Below are positions 24,401 through 32,550 of a stretch of DNA of 40,313 nt, one piece after another; position 1 is the first letter of the stretch; every line of letters begins with the position of its first letter. The notes below the pieces were generated by a model. The model did no database searches, was not told where the DNA came from, and saw only the letters and a program-made list of their open reading frames with translations. The translations under genes and the position numbers were made by a program. Source of the DNA: Neophaeotheca triangularis (Eukaryota); assembly GCA_054600435.1 (NCBI GenBank), contig BAAIJX010000050.1, forward strand, positions 124,001-164,313. Reading direction: 5' to 3'.

Positions 24401-25821
24401 TCAATAGGATCTGGGCAGATCCAGCACTTTCTCGGCGATATAGTTGAGGCACATCTCCCTGCTAACAGGCGCCAGCCGCGGTATAATTACCTCTCGAAGA
24501 TACCGCTCAACATGATACCTGATCAACACAGTCAGCCATCCAAGCCCGCACCAAGTCAGCAACAAAACATCACTCACTCTTTAGCATAACCCATCCCCCC
24601 CATGGTGCAAACAGCCGTCTCACAAGCCTGAAAAGCATTCTCGCCCGCAAGATACTTGACAGCATTCGCGTACTCCCCCGTAGCGAAACCCTCATCCCAC
24701 ATCTTCGCAGCCTGCATAATCATCAACCGCGTGCTCTCAAGCTGACACCAAGCCCTAGCCAACGGATGCGCGATGCCCTGATTCATGCCAATCGGCCTGC
24801 CAAAAACCACACGCTCTCGAGCATACCGCGCCGCGACGCGGAGAGCCGCGTAGCCCAGTCCGACGGCTTCGCCGGATAACAAAATGCGTTCGGCGTTCAT
24901 GCCGTGCATGATCTGCTTGAAACCGTCGCCCTCGGCGCCTATTCGATCCGCGACGGGGACGCGCCAGCCGTCGAAATGCAGTTGATTCGTGTCCACGGCT
25001 GCGCGGCCCATTTTCTTGATTTCAGTGACGGAGACTTGGGAGCGGTCTAGGGTGGTGTAGAAGAGGGTTAGACCCTGGGAGGGCTTGGTGACTTGGTCTA
25101 GAGGTGTTGTGCGCACGAGTATTAGAATCTTTTCGGCTACTTGCGCCGTCGATGTCCAGATTTTGCTGCCTTTGAGAGTGTAGTGGTCTCCTTCGCGCAC
25201 AGCTTGCGATTGCAGTTTCAGCGTGTCGAGGCCAGTGTTGGGTTCTGTGACTGCGAAACACGATCGTTCTCTTCCTTCGATCAGAGGGACAAGGAAGCGT
25301 TCCCGTTGCTCTTCTGTGCCATATTTGACCACTGGTGCCAGACCGAATATGTTCATATGGACAGCGCTGCTCGCTGTGCCGCCGCCACCACTCTCAGAGA
25401 TTGTTTGCATCATTACTGTGGCTTCTGAGAGGCCTAGTTCGCTGCCGCCGTACGCTGAGGGCATCATGATGCCTAGCCATCCTGCTTTGGCGATGGCGTC
25501 GGAGAACTCACTGGGCCAGCGGGCTTGGTTGTCGATATCGAGCCAGTAAGAGTCTGGGAAGTTTGAGCAGATTTTGCCGATGCTTTCACGGACAGTGGCC
25601 TGTGTTTCACTGTAATCTGGAAAGATTGGAAGATATTCCGTTGCTTTCGGGATAGATGCGTTGGTATGTGATGCGTGGAAGGGAGCAATCTGCTGGCTAG
25701 GATTCCATCGTCGTGTGTAAGTCAACTTTAGCAAATCCAGATCCTCTTTTTTCGGTCCTGATATCAGTCTAGGTCGAATCCGAGGACGAACAATGTGGGT
25801 TCCAAGTCGTGTACTAGCCAT
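24401..25821 (-). CDS. Acyl-CoA dehydrogenase family protein, ~453 aa; exons 25821-24578, 24518-24401
   Basis: Motifs FAVTEPNTGLD, GSKIWTS, HGMNAERI, RVVFGRPIG and MGGMGYAKEYHVERYLRE (joined across GT-AG intron 24577-24519), ending in ...AEKVLDLPRSY. The N-terminus is Arg-rich and presequence-like. Confidence 0.95.
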
Positions 25822-25859
25822 AATAGCCTCCAAGATGACCTCCCCGGTCTGGAAATTGG

Positions 25860-25897
25860 AATCGTCAAGCTCCAATCGTCAAGCTCCAAACGTCAGC
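25860..25897. repeat. 14-bp tandem duplication (AATCGTCAAGCTCC x2 plus a degenerate third copy) in the shared ACAD/CoA-transferase upstream region
   Basis: Seen directly at 25860-25873 and 25874-25887, followed by AAACGTCAGC. Confidence 0.8.
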
Positions 25898-26231
25898 AAA
25901 CACGCTGCTTCACGTTCATAAATATCACAAAGTCGAATTAGAGCTCGTGGTGTACAGACTCCTGCGTTTCGAACCAGGAAACGGACATAACTACAGTACG
26001 ATCCTAATGAGCAGGTATCACAGGAGTCTTGACGATCAACATTGAAGAGGGGAACGAAGCGACCTCGGCGTGCTCCCCGCACCGTTTACGACACAGCTGC
26101 ATGTCTGCAACCTTCTACTGGTACAGGCGTACTCATAGTCAACAGTCAGTAAAGAGCAGTAGAGTACCTACCAAGAACTGTACAGTGATCAAACGCGAGC
26201 TTCCTCCAGGCAGCGGATTTTCAAACCCAAG

Positions 26232-27614
26232 ATGAACATGACCAGCCGCATCGCAAGCAGGCCATCCGGCAGCAGAACCACAACGAAGGCCTTGAACAAT
26301 AAAGCGATTGCTCGCCACTCTCTCCCGGGACTCGCCACCCTCCTTGGAAAACCTTCCCGACACCATCCCCACTCCACCAAACAACAACCCTCACAAGGCC
26401 CCCTCACCGGCATAAAAATCCTCGACTTCTCCCGCATCCTCGCCGGCCCCTTTTGCACTCAAATCCTCGCCGACTACGGCGCAACTGTGACCAAAATCGA
26501 GCAACCCCTCACGGGCGACGAGACTAGGTCCTGGCAGAACGCGGGCGAAAGCTCAGCTTGGAAACAACCCGCCACGGGGCCGATGAGTCTGTACTTCGCG
26601 GCCGTAAACCGGAATAAAAGGAGTTTGACGCTGGACTTGAAGAAGCGAGAAGCGTTGGAGGTGGTGTATCGGCTTGCGGCGGAGGCGGACGTGGTTGTGG
26701 AGAATTTTGTGCCCGGGGGAGCGGAGAGGTTGGGGGTCGGGTGGGAGGCGTTATCGCAGCGGAATCCGAGGTTGGTTTATGCTTCTATTTCCGGGTATGG
26801 GGCTCAGGGACCGTATGCTGGGAGGGCGGGCTATGATGCCATTGCCGCTGCCGAGGGGGGTCTGATGCATATTACGGGCCATCCTGAGGGTGGGCCCGTG
26901 AGGCCGGGGCTGGGCATGACGGATATGTCGACGGGGTTATTTACGCATGGGGCCATTATGGCGGCGCTTTGGAGTCGTGAACGGACGGGGCGGGGCCAGA
27001 AAATCGATGCGAGTTTGTTTGAGACGCAGTTGGCGCTTATGATTAATGTCGGTGCGAGTTGGCTGAATTTGGGGGTCGAGGGGAAGAGGTATGGCGCTGC
27101 GCATCCGAGTATTGTGCCCTACAATACTTGGCAGTGCATGGATGGGGTTTGGTTGGCGCTGGCGGCGAATAATGAGAGGCAGTTTCGCGTGCTTTGTGAG
27201 CGGATTGGGAGGCCGGAATTGATAGGCGATGAGCGGTTCACTACTAACGCATTGAGGGTAGAGAATCGAGTCGCTATGGATGATATCCTAGATGAGCTCT
27301 TTGGCAGCAAGACGTCCGAGGAATGGCTGAAGATTTTCGATGGCTCTGGCCTCGCTTGTGGTCCGGTCAATACCATCCAAAAAGCCTTCGAGCATCCGCA
27401 GGCTATGGCGAGAGATATGGTACGACCGATGGAGTGGGACGCGACTAGCAGCGGTCAGTGGAAAAGTATCGGCGTGCCAGTCAAGCTAAGTGACACAAAA
27501 GGAGATATCAGACAATATCCGCCACGGCTAGGTGAGCATACTGAACATGTACTGAGCGAGGCTGGGTACAGTACCGAAGAGATAGAGAAACTTCGGACAG
27601 CCGGGGCTATATAG
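26232..27614 (+). CDS. Family III CoA-transferase (CaiB/BaiF; SUGCT-like), intronless, 460 aa
   Basis: Motifs PLTGIKILDFSRILAGP, LADYGA, NRNKRSLTLDLK, DVVVENF, SISGYG, the catalytic Asp in RAGYD and PPRLGEHT. The basic N-terminal extension is presequence-like. Confidence 0.95.
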   Translation: MNMTSRIASRPSGSRTTTKALNNKAIARHSLPGLATLLGKPSRHHPHSTKQQPSQGPLTGIKILDFSRILAGPFCTQILADYGATVTKIEQPLTGDETRSWQNAGESSAWKQPATGPMSLYFAAVNRNKRSLTLDLKKREALEVVYRLAAEADVVVENFVPGGAERLGVGWEALSQRNPRLVYASISGYGAQGPYAGRAGYDAIAAAEGGLMHITGHPEGGPVRPGLGMTDMSTGLFTHGAIMAALWSRERTGRGQKIDASLFETQLALMINVGASWLNLGVEGKRYGAAHPSIVPYNTWQCMDGVWLALAANNERQFRVLCERIGRPELIGDERFTTNALRVENRVAMDDILDELFGSKTSEEWLKIFDGSGLACGPVNTIQKAFEHPQAMARDMVRPMEWDATSSGQWKSIGVPVKLSDTKGDIRQYPPRLGEHTEHVLSEAGYSTEEIEKLRTAGAI

Positions 27615-27981
27615 CACGCCCGGCCTTATCTCTTTCCCTAGCTCGGGTGCATTCCCCAGTGCTGTGGGGTGGCATGAAAGCCCCGCCGTATAGGCCCTCA
27701 CCAAGGTTCTGACGGCTGCAAGGCTATCCGAACGACTCCAGAAAGACTGCAATTAAGTGAGCAACACGGACAGAGGAAATCTGAAGCGAAACCACAAGGC
27801 CGGTGTTAGGGAAGTTGTTCAATGTCAGCACGGCTTTTCGTTCGGTAACGTGGGTATCATAGTCTATAGATGCTGGCCTGTGAGCTGTATCCATCTATAG
27901 TCGATATCGTCGGACGCAGTGCCAGAAGTGTTTAACCTTTCTTCGCTCCTCTGCAGGCCCTCTTACTAGAAAATGCCGATC

Positions 27982-29019
27982 TCAAGGGCGGGTCTCTGCG
28001 GCAGCACCGCCAGCATTGCCTACCGACTGCGGTGCCGAGTTGGCGTCTTCCTGTGTCCTTCCAAGAGGCAGGTCCGCGTTCAAAGCCGACTCCTGGCCGC
28101 TCAGCAGGGTGTGAACGGGTGCATTGAGCTTCTCCCTGCCCTTGAGGAAGTCAAGCTCCATGAGGAAAGAGAAGCCAAGGAGATCACCTCCAAGATCCTT
28201 GACCAGCTTGCCAGCCGCAGAAGCACTGCCGCCTATCGCACAACTGTTAGCCACCGTGATATCCTCTCCTCATCCAAAGCCAAAGCCAAACTCACCAGTA
28301 GCAATGATATCATCCACAATCACAACCTTCTGGCCCTTACGAATAGCATCCTTCTGAATCTGGAAGAAATCCTCGCCATATTCCTTTTTGAAACCCTCAG
28401 TAGCCACCTCACCGGGCAGCTTACCCTGCTTCCTGACCGGTACGAACGCCGCCCCGAGCCTCAACGCCAACGTAGGGCCGTACAAAAAGCCCCTACTTTC
28501 TAACCCAACGACCACATCCACCTTGCTCTGCTCGCCCGTCCCCGTGCCAAAAGCAGCATCAAACTGCAACTCCAGCGCGCGAATGAGGCTGTTGTGCAGC
28601 GTGTGCGAAGCGAAGAGGGGCATGATGTCCTCGAAGAGAATACCCTTGGAAGGGAAGTCTGGGAACTGGCGAAGGCCCTTTTTGAGGGTAACCTTCAGCC
28701 TGCTCAGCTCGTCTACCGCGCCGGGCTGTTGGGCGGAACTGGCGGCAGAGGCGGCGGACTGTCCTGCTTCGGCGGCATGGTTGGCGCTGGGGTTGCTGGC
28801 TTGCGCGGCGTTGTCGAGGAGGGTTGCGTCGGCGTGCGTGCCCGTCTTGCCGGTCGGGGGGTGGAATTTGGGATGCGGTTCCGTCGTCGTCGGGTCGGGC
28901 TTCGTGTCGGGTGGGTGCGAGGCGGTGCTGGGCTTGTCGCTCTTTTGCGTGCTGGCGGAGGTGTTGTCGGGGTGGCCGTGGGGAGGGTGCGAATCGAAGG
29001 AGACGGGTGCGCCGGACAT
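27982..29019 (-). CDS. APT1: Adenine phosphoribosyltransferase, ~324 aa; exons 29019-28296, 28232-27982
   Basis: Motifs [29 protein letters not shown] and the PRPP-binding motif [12 protein letters not shown], which is restored across intron 28295-28233 (GTGAGT...GCTAAC...TAG). Confidence 0.95.
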
Positions 29020-30415: not shown

Positions 30416-32053
30416 TTACCGGCCGAACTTCCTCAACTCGAGCCAACGAAGAGGCGGAAAAACAAGGCCAGCCCAGGCGAAACCAACGTAATTCCCCATC
30501 TACACACAGCAAATATTAGCAAGATTCAAGATAGCCGGGATCCGTCGCAATCCACTCACATCAGCCCCGTAATCCCCAACCAGCCCAGCCAAAGGCCCAA
30601 TATACCAAACCTGAGCCATGCACAAGATCGAGCCGATCCAGCCTACCAGAAAAGCAACGAGCGCAGCGATCCCAACAGGCAGTTTCGAGCGATCGTCCCA
30701 AGCGTCCCAATTCCAGCCTAGCTTCTTCCAACGGCGGAAGATGAGGTGCTCTTCCAGGCTGATGACCGCCCAACTGGAGACCCAGTACCCCATCAAGGCG
30801 AGGAAGTTGGTGAAGATGTCCGCCAAATTCGAGCGTCCGGCAATCGCACAGACCGTGTAGATGATGACGCCTATGGTGTTCCAGATTACTCGAGGTATCT
30901 TTTCGGGATATCGGCCTAGTACTTGGAAGTCCACTGAGGTGGAGTAGGTTGGGGGGATCATGTTGGCAATCAGTCCGAGGGCTATGACGACGCTGCAGAA
31001 GGAGCCAAAAGTGCCAATGGGGTTGAAGCCTTCCACTATGAGCGATCCCGGTGAGACGTTGTAGGCGTTTGACCAAGCTTGATTGTTGAGGATGCCAGAG
31101 CCGAGGCCAATGCCGACCATGAACGCGAAGGAGAAGCCTAAGCTCAAACCGATCATGGTGACCGTGAAGACTTTCCAGCGAGGCGTGTGTTCTGGGTAGT
31201 AGACAAAGTAGTCCGCTGCTCCGCCGGCCCAAGTGATGGCTGCCGCCAGACACAAACTGAAGAAGGAAAGGCGATTGCCGGCGATTGTTCTAGCAGTCTC
31301 CCCCTCTGAAGGTTTTGCGTCGAGATCAAAGTTTGGGCCTGCGACCCCTGCCAGGATAGCAAGTACTATCAGCTGCGGTAGCCAAGCGTAGCGCTCGTAG
31401 AGGTGGAAGATACTGTAGCCGAACGTCGTGATGACCCACGTGATGACAGCCACGATCACAATCCCCACAATGACGCTGAGGTCCCCGCTGACACTGACAG
31501 CGCTTATGATTTGTCCAGCTACCACCGCATCAATGAGAGCGTATCCAAGGAGAACGATGATGTTTAGGATGACAACCAGCTTGGCCGGCCACCAACCCAT
31601 AGTGTAGCGTGCAAACACCATACTCCTGTTGCCACTCCTAGGGCCAAAAGTCGCAATGTACGCAGGTACTAGGGACCCGACGAGCATCCCAAAGATGGCG
31701 CAGAGGCTGCTGTCCAGGAAGCTGAGGTAAAAGACTGCAGGCCCGAGCATTCCAAGGGTGACGTTGTTGGCAACGAGGTTGAAGCTGAACCACAAGACAC
31801 CGATCTGGGAGTAGCCTAGCTGGCTGAGGTCATGGCGTTCCTCTGGCAATACACGCTGGATGCCGCGTGCTTCGAGGTTGTACCGGATCAAGACGCGCTC
31901 AAAAGCTTGGAGGTTGCGTTTAAAGGCGCCGTCTGTCGATGCAGAGTTGTTGTTGACATCGTTGGAGGTTCTGACGGTAGGCGCCAGATTTGGCGCGCCT
32001 TTCTCGACATCACGGGTGCTCCGACGAGCGGGTTGCTGAGGTTGATCCTCCAT
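30416..32053 (-). CDS. NCS1-family purine-cytosine permease-like transporter (Fcy2/Tpn1 type), ~525 aa; coding exons 32053-30560, 30499-30416; predicted thiamine/HMP-related substrate
   Basis: Motifs EARGIQRVLPEER, WFSFNL, GPRSGNRSMVFARYTMGWW, HLYERYAW, AADYFVYYP, NFLALMGYW and MAQVWYIGP, ending in PPLRWLELRKFGR after intron 30559-30500. The substrate is an inference from the riboswitch in its leader. Confidence 0.95.
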
Positions 32054-32059
32054 GGTCAC

Positions 32060-32326
32060 CTGTGAGTAGCATCAGCAAAAGTATCAACTTGTCAGGGGAG
32101 CATGATCCTTTCGCCGGCATTGTCCGGTGCAAGTTCAAGAAAGCCGTATAATCTCAGCAAGACCTTCCAGTGCTGCGCCTTCTCCGGACGATACCTAGTC
32201 TTGGGTGGAAGGGCGCAGTCAACTGGTTGAGATCGAGCACCGGCTCATGCATATACGTCTCAAGAATACCTTGACCTCTAGACATGATCCTGCCAGCTGT
32301 CATCTTTGCTGCCTGGGAAAGCGTAC
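32060..32326 (-). other. 5'-UTR intron of the NCS1 permease with two candidate 5' splice sites (GTACGC at 32326, AAG|GTATTC at 32269) and one 3' splice site (CACAG ending at 32060)
   Basis: A TTTTGCTGAT branch point and CACAG| acceptor lie 6 nt upstream of the main ATG. Two same-frame upstream ATGs (32303, 32285) sit between the two donors. Confidence 0.75.
32100..32250 (-). ncRNA. TPP (thiamine pyrophosphate) riboswitch aptamer, fungal intronic type (cis-regulatory RNA)
   Basis: The minus strand reads GCAUGA-GCCGGUGC...(long P3)...GCUGAGAUUAUACGGC-UUUCUUGAA-CUU-GCA-CCGG-ACAAUG-CCGG-CGA-AAG-GA-UCAUGC. Pairings seen by eye are P1 GCAUGA/UCAUGC, P2 GCCG/CGGC, P3 including CUGCGCC/GGCGCAG and CCAGU/ACUGG, P4 CUU/AAG and P5 CCGG/CCGG. 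The hallmark CUGAGA, AUAC and GCGAAAGGA elements are present. Confidence 0.92.
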
Positions 32327-32470
32327 TGTCGTGGAGAGGTTCTAGTGGAGGGTGTCAGTGTGAGTCTTGAGTTACGACGGGTCACTCTGAAAGGTGGGAC
32401 GCTGTTGCCAGCCTACCTGAGCCGAGTACTAGCGCTGTTCGGATTGGAAAGGTTGCTTTGGACAAGCACA

Positions 32471-32550
32471 GTGAGGTCCACGGGTGTACAGTGAGGTTTA
32501 CGGGTGTGTGGTGACGTTCCTGGGTGTGTAGTGAGGTCCGCTGGTGCATG
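32471..32550. repeat. Four-copy 20-bp imperfect tandem repeat (GTGAGGTYYNYGGGTGT-like) in the divergent promoter
   Basis: Units are gtgaggtccacgggtgtaca / gtgaggtttacgggtgtgtg / gtgacgttcctgggtgtgta / gtgaggtccgctggtgcatg. Confidence 0.85.

Follow-up and report, generated by a model that had tools for sequence, protein, structure and literature searches.

A putative thiamine pyrophosphate riboswitch in the leader of an NCS1-family permease gene of Neophaeotheca triangularis

The permease gene and its leader

The stretch of DNA analysed here, called the window below, comprises 40,313 nucleotides (nt) from the dothideomycete Neophaeotheca triangularis (assembly GCA_054600435.1, contig BAAIJX010000050.1, positions 124,001 to 164,313) and is numbered from its first letter. 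On its minus strand lies a gene for a permease of the NCS1 family. Our subject is the leader of this gene, in which a 5' untranslated region (5'-UTR) intron probably contains a putative thiamine pyrophosphate (TPP) riboswitch, as judged from sequence comparison. The features of the gene and of its leader outside the aptamer are as follows (a slash marks an exon-intron boundary).

30416 to 32053, minus strand: coding region of the NCS1 (Fcy21/Tpn1-like) permease, an open reading frame (ORF) of 517 codons and a short last exon after one C-terminal intron
32321 to 32329, minus strand: predicted distal 5' splice site ACA/GTACGC, conserved, with GT at 32326-32325; the intron to 32060 would be 267 nt
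32283 to 32303, minus strand: two in-frame upstream ATGs, 32303-32301 and 32285-32283, between the two donors
32270 to 32276, minus strand: exon-end element GGUCAAG, homolog of GAUCAAG in the family and complementary to the 5' strand of P4-J4/5-P5
32264 to 32269, minus strand: predicted proximal 5' splice site CAAG/GTATTC, with GT at 32269-32268 and the exon ending at 32270; the intron to 32060 would be 210 nt
32251 to 32256, minus strand: third candidate 5' splice site GAC/GTATAT, 6 nt before P1
32060 to 32075, minus strand: branch-like CUGAU (32075-32071) and predicted 3' splice site CACAG/G, with AG at 32061-32060 and exon 2 starting at 32059
32010 to 32053, minus strand: main ATG (32053-32051) and the stop TGA (32012-32010) of the overlapping upstream ORF (uORF)

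The main ORF in the list of open reading frames is 30500 to 32053 on the minus strand. The encoded permease matches Pfam PF02133 (E 2.7e-16, 59.9 bits against a cutoff of 23.5), which places it in the NCS1 family, and over 97% of its length it aligns, at 100% identity, with a 525-residue NCBI protein from N. triangularis. The annotated protein begins at the ATG at 32053 (MEDQPQQ), and its gene has one C-terminal intron. The nearest named homologs are annotated as purine-cytosine permease FCY21 or as vitamin B6 transporter, and the proteins of the closest relatives (P0002-P0004) show 77-81% identity. With the NCBIfam model of the NCS1 subfamily the permease scores 152.9, under the cutoff of 353.1, and the NCBIfam model of the bacterial CytX gives a weak match (30.4 bits against a cutoff of 309.85).

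Comparative set

For comparison, 24 homologs of the permease were aligned and used to recruit DNA from metagenome contigs; of the stretches obtained, 130 encode a relative, and the set was reduced to 80 loci. Only 12 of these had an aptamer by a strict regular expression, which also gave a spurious minus-strand match in L069, and an nhmmer profile of the 3' half of the aptamer took its place. Run on the 80 loci, this profile matched 60 at E<1e-4 and one more, L045, at 0.0026. All matches lie on the coding strand, about 100 nt upstream of the coding match. The remaining 19 loci are outside this study, and at least 8 of them start at a contig end, without a leader.

The 60 riboswitch loci include 10 exact duplicates, leaving 50 distinct leaders. 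Alignment A2, on which the counts below are based, consists of the window and the leaders of 36 relatives (37 rows); 14 near-duplicate or partial leaders were left out of it (L003, L006, L008, L011, L013, L014, L029, L035, L038, L039, L043, L061, L078 and L079). The acceptor in the relatives was taken as the first AG at least 6 nt past the last CTRAY.

Three observations concern single leaders of the set. L014:2334-2503 resembles a decayed copy, having an aptamer without the P4 to J4/5 segment, a distal site ATACG and a proximal site CAAAGT. In L024:2350-2427 an additional insertion of about 16 nt, absent from the other 36 leaders, separates P4 from P5. In L047 and L056 no ATG follows the aligned acceptor within the stretch examined; the riboswitch intron of these two may interrupt the coding region, which is the arrangement of the Type III class described in PMC5882874.

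Splice sites and upstream reading frame

A first-pass annotation of the window, made from the sequence alone, had proposed that a choice between two donors decides whether an inhibitory uORF is kept in the mRNA. The donors, upstream ATGs (uATGs), acceptor, main ATG and uORF peptide that it listed were all recovered when the sequence was read again. Splicing from the distal donor would take out both uATGs, and the joint 32327-32059 leaves no ATG before the main ATG, which stands in a Kozak-like context (ACCATGG). The joint 32270-32059 yields the uORF peptide of the first-pass annotation, which crosses the main ATG out of frame and ends at TGA 32012-32010. Depletion of ATGs in the presumed first exon was not significant, the nearest upstream ATG being 222 nt from the distal donor and about 2 being expected in 264 nt. 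The intron from 32269 to 32060 carries five more ATGs.

The donors, uATG, acceptor and overlapping uORF are conserved in the 36 relatives and are thus beyond what chance would give. At the distal donor, 29 of 37 leaders have GTACG and 35 have GTA, while L044 and L046 lack the site; position +6 is never T, which makes this a suboptimal donor. Between the distal and proximal donor positions at least one ATG is present in 37/37 leaders. Of the 30 leaders in which the heptamer was found, 25 have a proximal GTA after it, at 12 to 21 nt upstream of P1, and a GT 5 to 10 nt ahead of P1 (GTAAAC, GTAACG, GTAAGC, GTAAAA) recurs in many relatives at the position of the third candidate donor of the window. 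At the 3' end of the intron, CTRAY followed by YAG is aligned in all 37 leaders, usually 8 to 14 nt apart, and the main ATG lies 3 to 27 nt past the acceptor in the aligned leaders (6 nt in the window).

Reading from the first uATG, proximal splicing gives an out-of-frame overlap of the main ATG in 28 of the 37 leaders, the window included. In seven (L022, L026, L031, L033, L046, L050, L076) the uORF stops 8 to 44 nt before the main ATG, and L047 and L056 are not scorable; an in-frame fusion occurs in none (0/37). If the third donor of the window, at 32256, were used, the uORF would stop at a TGA that precedes the main ATG by 2 nt. The splice sites that the cell actually uses we infer from these sequence features.

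Within the uORF, AGTAGCAG or near variants of it are conserved at codons 4-6 in many relatives (A2 columns 201-208; for example L019, L034, L058 and L073). The window lacks this motif, which may reflect a conserved start of the uORF peptide, M-x-x-S-S-R. A pairing of AGTAGCAG, or of the segment before P1, with the branch-site region was considered and, for the family in general, rejected, as neither was better than shuffles (median z -0.3 for both segments, with z<-2 in 5/37 and 2/37 leaders, respectively), and RNAalifold recovers no helix that joins either of them to the branch-site region. An 8-base-pair (bp) match of CAGCAAAG with UUUUGCUG in the window is about at chance level, by estimate. 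Also rejected was the GT at 32194 (TAG/GTATCG) as a donor, since it falls near the tip of the variable P3, in its terminal part, and nothing in the relatives corresponds to it.

The aptamer

The putative aptamer was placed in a corrected register with A2, RNAalifold and canonical pairing.

32100 to 32250, minus strand: putative TPP aptamer
32250-32245 with 32105-32100, minus strand: P1, GCAUGA with UCAUGC
32244-32241 with 32146-32143, minus strand: P2, GCCG with CGGC
about 32239-32158, minus strand: P3, long
32157-32152, minus strand: J3-2, CUGAGA
32133-32131 with 32110-32108, minus strand: P4, CUU with AAG
32127-32124 with 32117-32114, minus strand: P5, CCGG with CCGG
32124 to 32133, minus strand: 5' strand of P4-J4/5-P5, CUUGCACCGG, the proposed partner-switching strand

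With a permissive threshold, the Rfam model RF00059 gives a hit of 38.5 bits on 32089-32192 (cutoff 54.3; E 7.7e-06), in which P1 contains non-canonical pairs. By comparison with the relatives this register is wrong: what Rfam takes as P1 and P2 is part of the long P3, of about 80 nt. The low score follows from this misplacement within the P3 insertion and is therefore not evidence for a missing core. By itself the long P3 folds at -33.6 kcal/mol, and the segment from P2 to CUGAGA, which is essentially P3, varies from 28 to 100 nt across the family.

The core motifs are all present at 32157-32110, namely CUGAGA (J3-2), ACGG (3' strand of P2), GAAC before P4 and GCG after P5, and they form invariant or near-invariant columns of the 37-leader alignment. 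In the window 17/17 aptamer pairs are canonical, and the window agrees with A2 at every invariant aptamer column. For P1, P2, P4 and P5 together, 97.0% of the A2 cells pair, against 92.2% when shuffled (0/500 shuffles reach the observed value) and 28-47% when slid. Compensatory changes are seen across A2 in P2 (AU 18, GC 13, GU 5) and in P5 (UA 21, AU 13, GC 2, CG 1), and no covariation was seen in P4. RNAalifold independently recovers P1, P2 and P5. On this comparative evidence we regard the aptamer of the window as real, despite its misalignment by Rfam. Rfam scans at the gathering threshold miss the fungal aptamers of this set because of their long P3 insertions, and standard scans may count too few of the fungal TPP members whose P3 stem is long. 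The minimum-energy fold of the full leader joins the start of the intron to the region of the 3' splice site; as the fold of a single sequence with long-range pairs, it was not relied on.

Pairing between the exon end and the aptamer

Across the family, the last 11 positions (-1 to -11) of the exon that ends at the proximal donor complement the 5' strand of P4-J4/5-P5. The exact heptamer GATCAAG stands at the exon end in 25 of 37 leaders; with a relaxed pattern the number rises to 30, and GGTCAAG occurs in the window alone. For the pairing of exon end and P4-P5, 80.3% of the A2 cells pair, compared with 76.0% when shuffled (0/500) and 8-47% when slid; for the inner five pairs the value is 94.5%. 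Cells altered on both sides number 16, against 8.9 in shuffles (0/500). In 26 of the 37 leaders the exon end is the best partner of the aptamer strand in the whole leader (median -13.4 kcal/mol), and against shuffled donor regions the median z is -3.52, p being <=0.01 in 24/37 and <=0.05 in 28/37. The complementarity is thus conserved and significant in the family, and it may already have been described in the literature for this family.

Exon positions -2 and -3 vary only from A to G, which preserves a wobble pair. Five leaders (L022, L026, L031, L044, L046) retain the heptamer without a following GT, and in these the sole nearby donor lies 9 to 25 nt before P1. In 6/30 leaders the heptamer stands in another reading frame relative to the first uATG. 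Together, the changes restricted to A to G, the heptamers without GT and the shifted frames speak for a constraint on the RNA and not on the peptide. The five leaders without a following GT suggest that what preserves the heptamer is its pairing with the aptamer, not a role as the end of an exon at a donor.

Proposed mechanism and alternatives

According to PMC3597705, P4-P5 of the Neurospora crassa NMT1 riboswitch is base-paired, while no ligand is bound, to nucleotides that flank a 5' splice site, and the product formed in response to TPP contains uORFs. Mukherjee et al. (2018; PMC5882874) define a Type I class for fungal TPP splice switches. In the window the aptamer lies within a predicted 5'-UTR intron whose 3' splice site is just ahead of the main ATG, two predicted alternative 5' splice sites surround the start of the uORF, and the proximal product would have a uORF geometry that precludes the main ORF, presumably to inhibitory effect. 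An NMT1-like switch of Type I is in our judgement the probable explanation of the leader, and the one that suits it best.

At low TPP, the intron would be spliced from the distal donor at 32326, giving an mRNA without uATG from which the permease could be made. At high TPP, the folded aptamer would release or favour the proximal donor at 32269, and possibly also the one at 32256, or the intron would be retained. The uATGs at 32303 and 32285 would then be kept, and the uORF would run over the main ATG out of frame, or stop 2 nt before it, so that no permease would be made. The logic of two donors and a uORF, with the distal product on and the proximal product off, which the first-pass annotation had put forward, agrees by analogy with the published NMT1 and Type I model and with the conservation of the elements. 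The direction of the response to TPP is one that we infer from the same analogy.

A simpler scheme would have TPP mainly block removal of the intron, the distal donor being constitutive, so that unspliced RNA builds up with the uATGs and the five intronic ATGs. The latter, between 32269 and 32060, would also silence the gene, and thiamine control by splicing of a riboswitch intron in the absence of proven donor switching has been discussed for Candida DUR31 (PMC5997356). Simple retention, however, needs neither a GT after GATCAAG nor another GT just before P1, yet these are conserved. It does not require a uORF phase that is never in frame from the first uATG, and the complementarity of the exon end to P4-P5 targets the proximal site, contrary to plain retention. 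We consider this scheme improbable.

Several points weigh against the NMT1-like switch, both in the family and in the window. The 37 leaders share kinship, so their counts are not independent events, and in the relatives the splice sites, acceptor and main ATG were set by rule and not from cDNA. For the alternative pairing, two of the five A2 measures do not exceed what shuffles give, namely pairs with both sides changed (4, reached by 189/500 shuffles) and further pair types (15, reached by 111/500). Rfam at its gathering threshold gives no aptamer match in the window. The third GT, at 32256, means that a description by two donors is possibly incomplete. Finally, the pairing of donor and aptamer in the window is itself not beyond chance (donor region shuffled 300 times: z -1.18, p 0.11); with a wider aptamer target, from the 3' strand of P2 through P5, z is 0.06 for the donor region of the window. 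Five other sites in the 350-nt leader exceed the exon end as partners of the aptamer strand, and in the folded ensemble of the 296-nt leader the GGUCAAG pairing has a pair probability of about 0.

The first-pass annotation wrote this pairing as GGUCAAG:CUUGCACC. GGUCAAG (32276-32270) can indeed form 7 bp with CUUG-C-ACC (32133-32126), leaving one C bulged; at -8.1 kcal/mol, or -9.7 if taken in a 21-nt frame, this duplex is among the weakest of the 37 leaders. The claim therefore stands insofar as the element is homologous to a complementarity that is significant in the family; in the window the pairing is weak, within chance and rivalled by a stronger predicted helix inside the aptamer. Where the relatives have GAUCAAG the window has GGUCAAG, and where they mostly have CUUGAUC(A/U)GG its P4-J4/5-P5 strand is CUUGCACCGG. 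These changes account for the weaker pairing with the donor and also produce an internal complement to another segment of the aptamer.

32237 to 32243, minus strand: CCGGUGC, 5' strand of P2/J2-3, candidate internal anti-aptamer and perfect 7-nt complement of GCACCGG (32130-32124)

CCGGUGC is the best partner of GCACCGG, with seven perfect pairs at -15.1 kcal/mol and a probability of 0.996-1.0 in the same ensemble. The ligand-free state could accordingly be set within the aptamer, GCACCGG taking CCGGUGC as its partner in place of the exon end. What decides between the donors would in that case be the formation of P1 and of the compact aptamer, which would bring the proximal donors and the branch site together or would expose or hide GTATAT, and not a masking of GGUCAAG/GU. 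Besides its energy, compared with -8.1 kcal/mol for the exon end, two properties of the internal helix speak for this. In the isolated aptamer domain the fold with CCGGUGC:GCACCGG and the aptamer fold are nearly isoenergetic (-54.1 and -53.1 kcal/mol), so that ligand binding could tip the balance. The contact of P2/J2-3 with P4-P5 is moreover an outlier in the window, at -15.8 kcal/mol against -4.7 to -10.8 in 35 of the 36 relatives, the exception being L024. However, the helix is predicted from equilibrium folding of one sequence, and during transcription the exon end, lying upstream, could be preferred as the partner. Part of the match is incidental, since P2 and P5 each contain the palindrome CCGG. 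The homologous exon-end element also persists, and its one A-to-G change fits the altered aptamer strand. We therefore hold a ligand-free state set by the internal helix to be unlikely, if somewhat less so than simple retention.

Along the same line, the expression platform may have been rewired in the lineage, the changes in J4/5 and P5 (CUUGCACCGG) having weakened the ancestral masking of the proximal donor and made a 7-bp anti-aptamer with the P2/J2-3 strand, donor choice then working through P1 and the compact aptamer, possibly by way of the GTATAT donor, in place of a direct pairing with the splice site. This too we would put forward only tentatively and with low expectation. If true, it would be a natural case of a riboswitch family that swaps its switching helix while keeping the same splicing output.

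The weak donor pairing of the window could also be read as a sign that the riboswitch is a decaying relic in N. triangularis and that the regulation of the gene has been lost. The Rfam score under threshold would fit this reading, as would the unusual J4/5 and P5 of the window (CA, CCGG), for which 30/37 leaders carry A and U in A2 columns 453 and 470, respectively, and the presence of a clearly decayed copy, L014, among the relatives. Against it, all 17 pairs of the aptamer are canonical and every invariant A2 aptamer column is shared, and no damage is seen in the donors, the uATGs, the branch site, the acceptor or the main ATG with its Kozak-like context. A relic is hence very improbable, the most so of the alternatives considered here.

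Returning to the NMT1-like switch, the weak pairing in the window would still have to mask the proximal donor, as we presume it does. The statement of the first-pass annotation that the full logic is readable was too strong, given the third candidate donor and given that the TPP-responsive donor and the direction of the response rest on analogy. Its observation is confirmed, and its interpretation is partly supported.

Surroundings of the gene

On the 3' side of the permease gene, 24574-29019 encodes an acyl-CoA dehydrogenase, a family III CoA-transferase and a phosphoribosyltransferase-domain protein. Among the neighbours examined there is no thiamine gene and no link to thiamine. At 32470-32539, about 150 to 210 nt upstream of the distal donor, a 20-nt unit is repeated in tandem (3.5 copies, 76% matches); the repeat likely sits in the promoter or in the first exon.

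Comparison with known systems

Fungal TPP riboswitches of "nucleoside transporter" genes have been classified computationally; the 27 rows of this kind in PMC5882874 comprise 18 of Type I, 8 of Type III and 1 of Type IV, several of them from Dothideomycetes. Like the element in the window, these riboswitches belong to an NCS1/PF02133 gene and lie in a 5'-UTR intron about 100 nt before the ATG. The Bipolaris maydis example in that paper reads GTACG, ATG, GATCAAG/GTAA, GCATGAGACCGGTG, aptamer, CTAAT branch, TAG/G and ATG, and the order of its blocks is the same as in the loci studied here. Neophaeotheca triangularis is not among the PMC5882874 rows inspected. Donovan et al. (2018; PMC5997356) represent the group by A. 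nidulans AN4526.2, which is Tpn1/Fcy21-like and is given as of unknown function, and the A. oryzae member is treated in silico in PMC8786325. Our literature search found no bench test of a switch of the NCS1/"nucleoside transporter" family. The comparative set of 60 riboswitch loci and 37 aligned leaders provides a clean, testable model for this family, with at its core a conserved heptamer, GAUCAAG, that pairs with the P4-P5 strand and is kept even where there is no adjoining donor.

Neurospora crassa NMT1 (PMC3597705, PMC5882874) shares with the window an aptamer in a 5'-UTR intron, two 5' splice sites and uORFs in the product induced by TPP. Whereas in NMT1 the ligand-free P4-P5 pairs with the flank of the second 5' splice site, the corresponding pairing in the window consists of 7 bp and a bulge and is not above chance. 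The genes also differ: NMT1 is an HMP-P synthase, and the window gene is a permease, known here from its sequence.

Like the window gene, NCU01977/DUR31 (Li and Breaker 2013; PMC3597705) is a transporter gene. Alternative splicing is steered there, and would be in the window, by a conserved element that lies near a 5' splice site and pairs with a portion of the aptamer. NCU01977/DUR31 is a urea-transporter (SSF) gene, however, with an intron of 650-900 nt between coding exons, and in its long-distance alpha-alpha' pairing the 3' strand of P1 pairs with alpha and promotes the nearby distal site. The window has an NCS1 gene with a 5'-UTR intron of 210-267 nt upstream of the main ATG, its partner is P4-P5, and its element abuts the proximal site. 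Assignment to Type II, the class of NCU01977/DUR31, was rejected on gene family, intron length and intron position.

The bacterial CytX is an NCS1-type putative hydroxymethylpyrimidine transporter controlled by TPP riboswitches. CytX and the permease of the window are thus both members of the NCS1 superfamily under a TPP riboswitch, a putative one in the window, although the regulatory mechanism of CytX is bacterial and different. By analogy, this suggests that the fungal permease takes up thiamine or its pyrimidine precursor.

In summary, the leader described here adds a probable example of eukaryotic splicing control by a riboswitch in a permease family. Its architecture is already published as Type I in the classification of PMC5882874, of which the leader is a well-supported, ordinary new example; the change of the switching strand specific to the window is its one unusual point.

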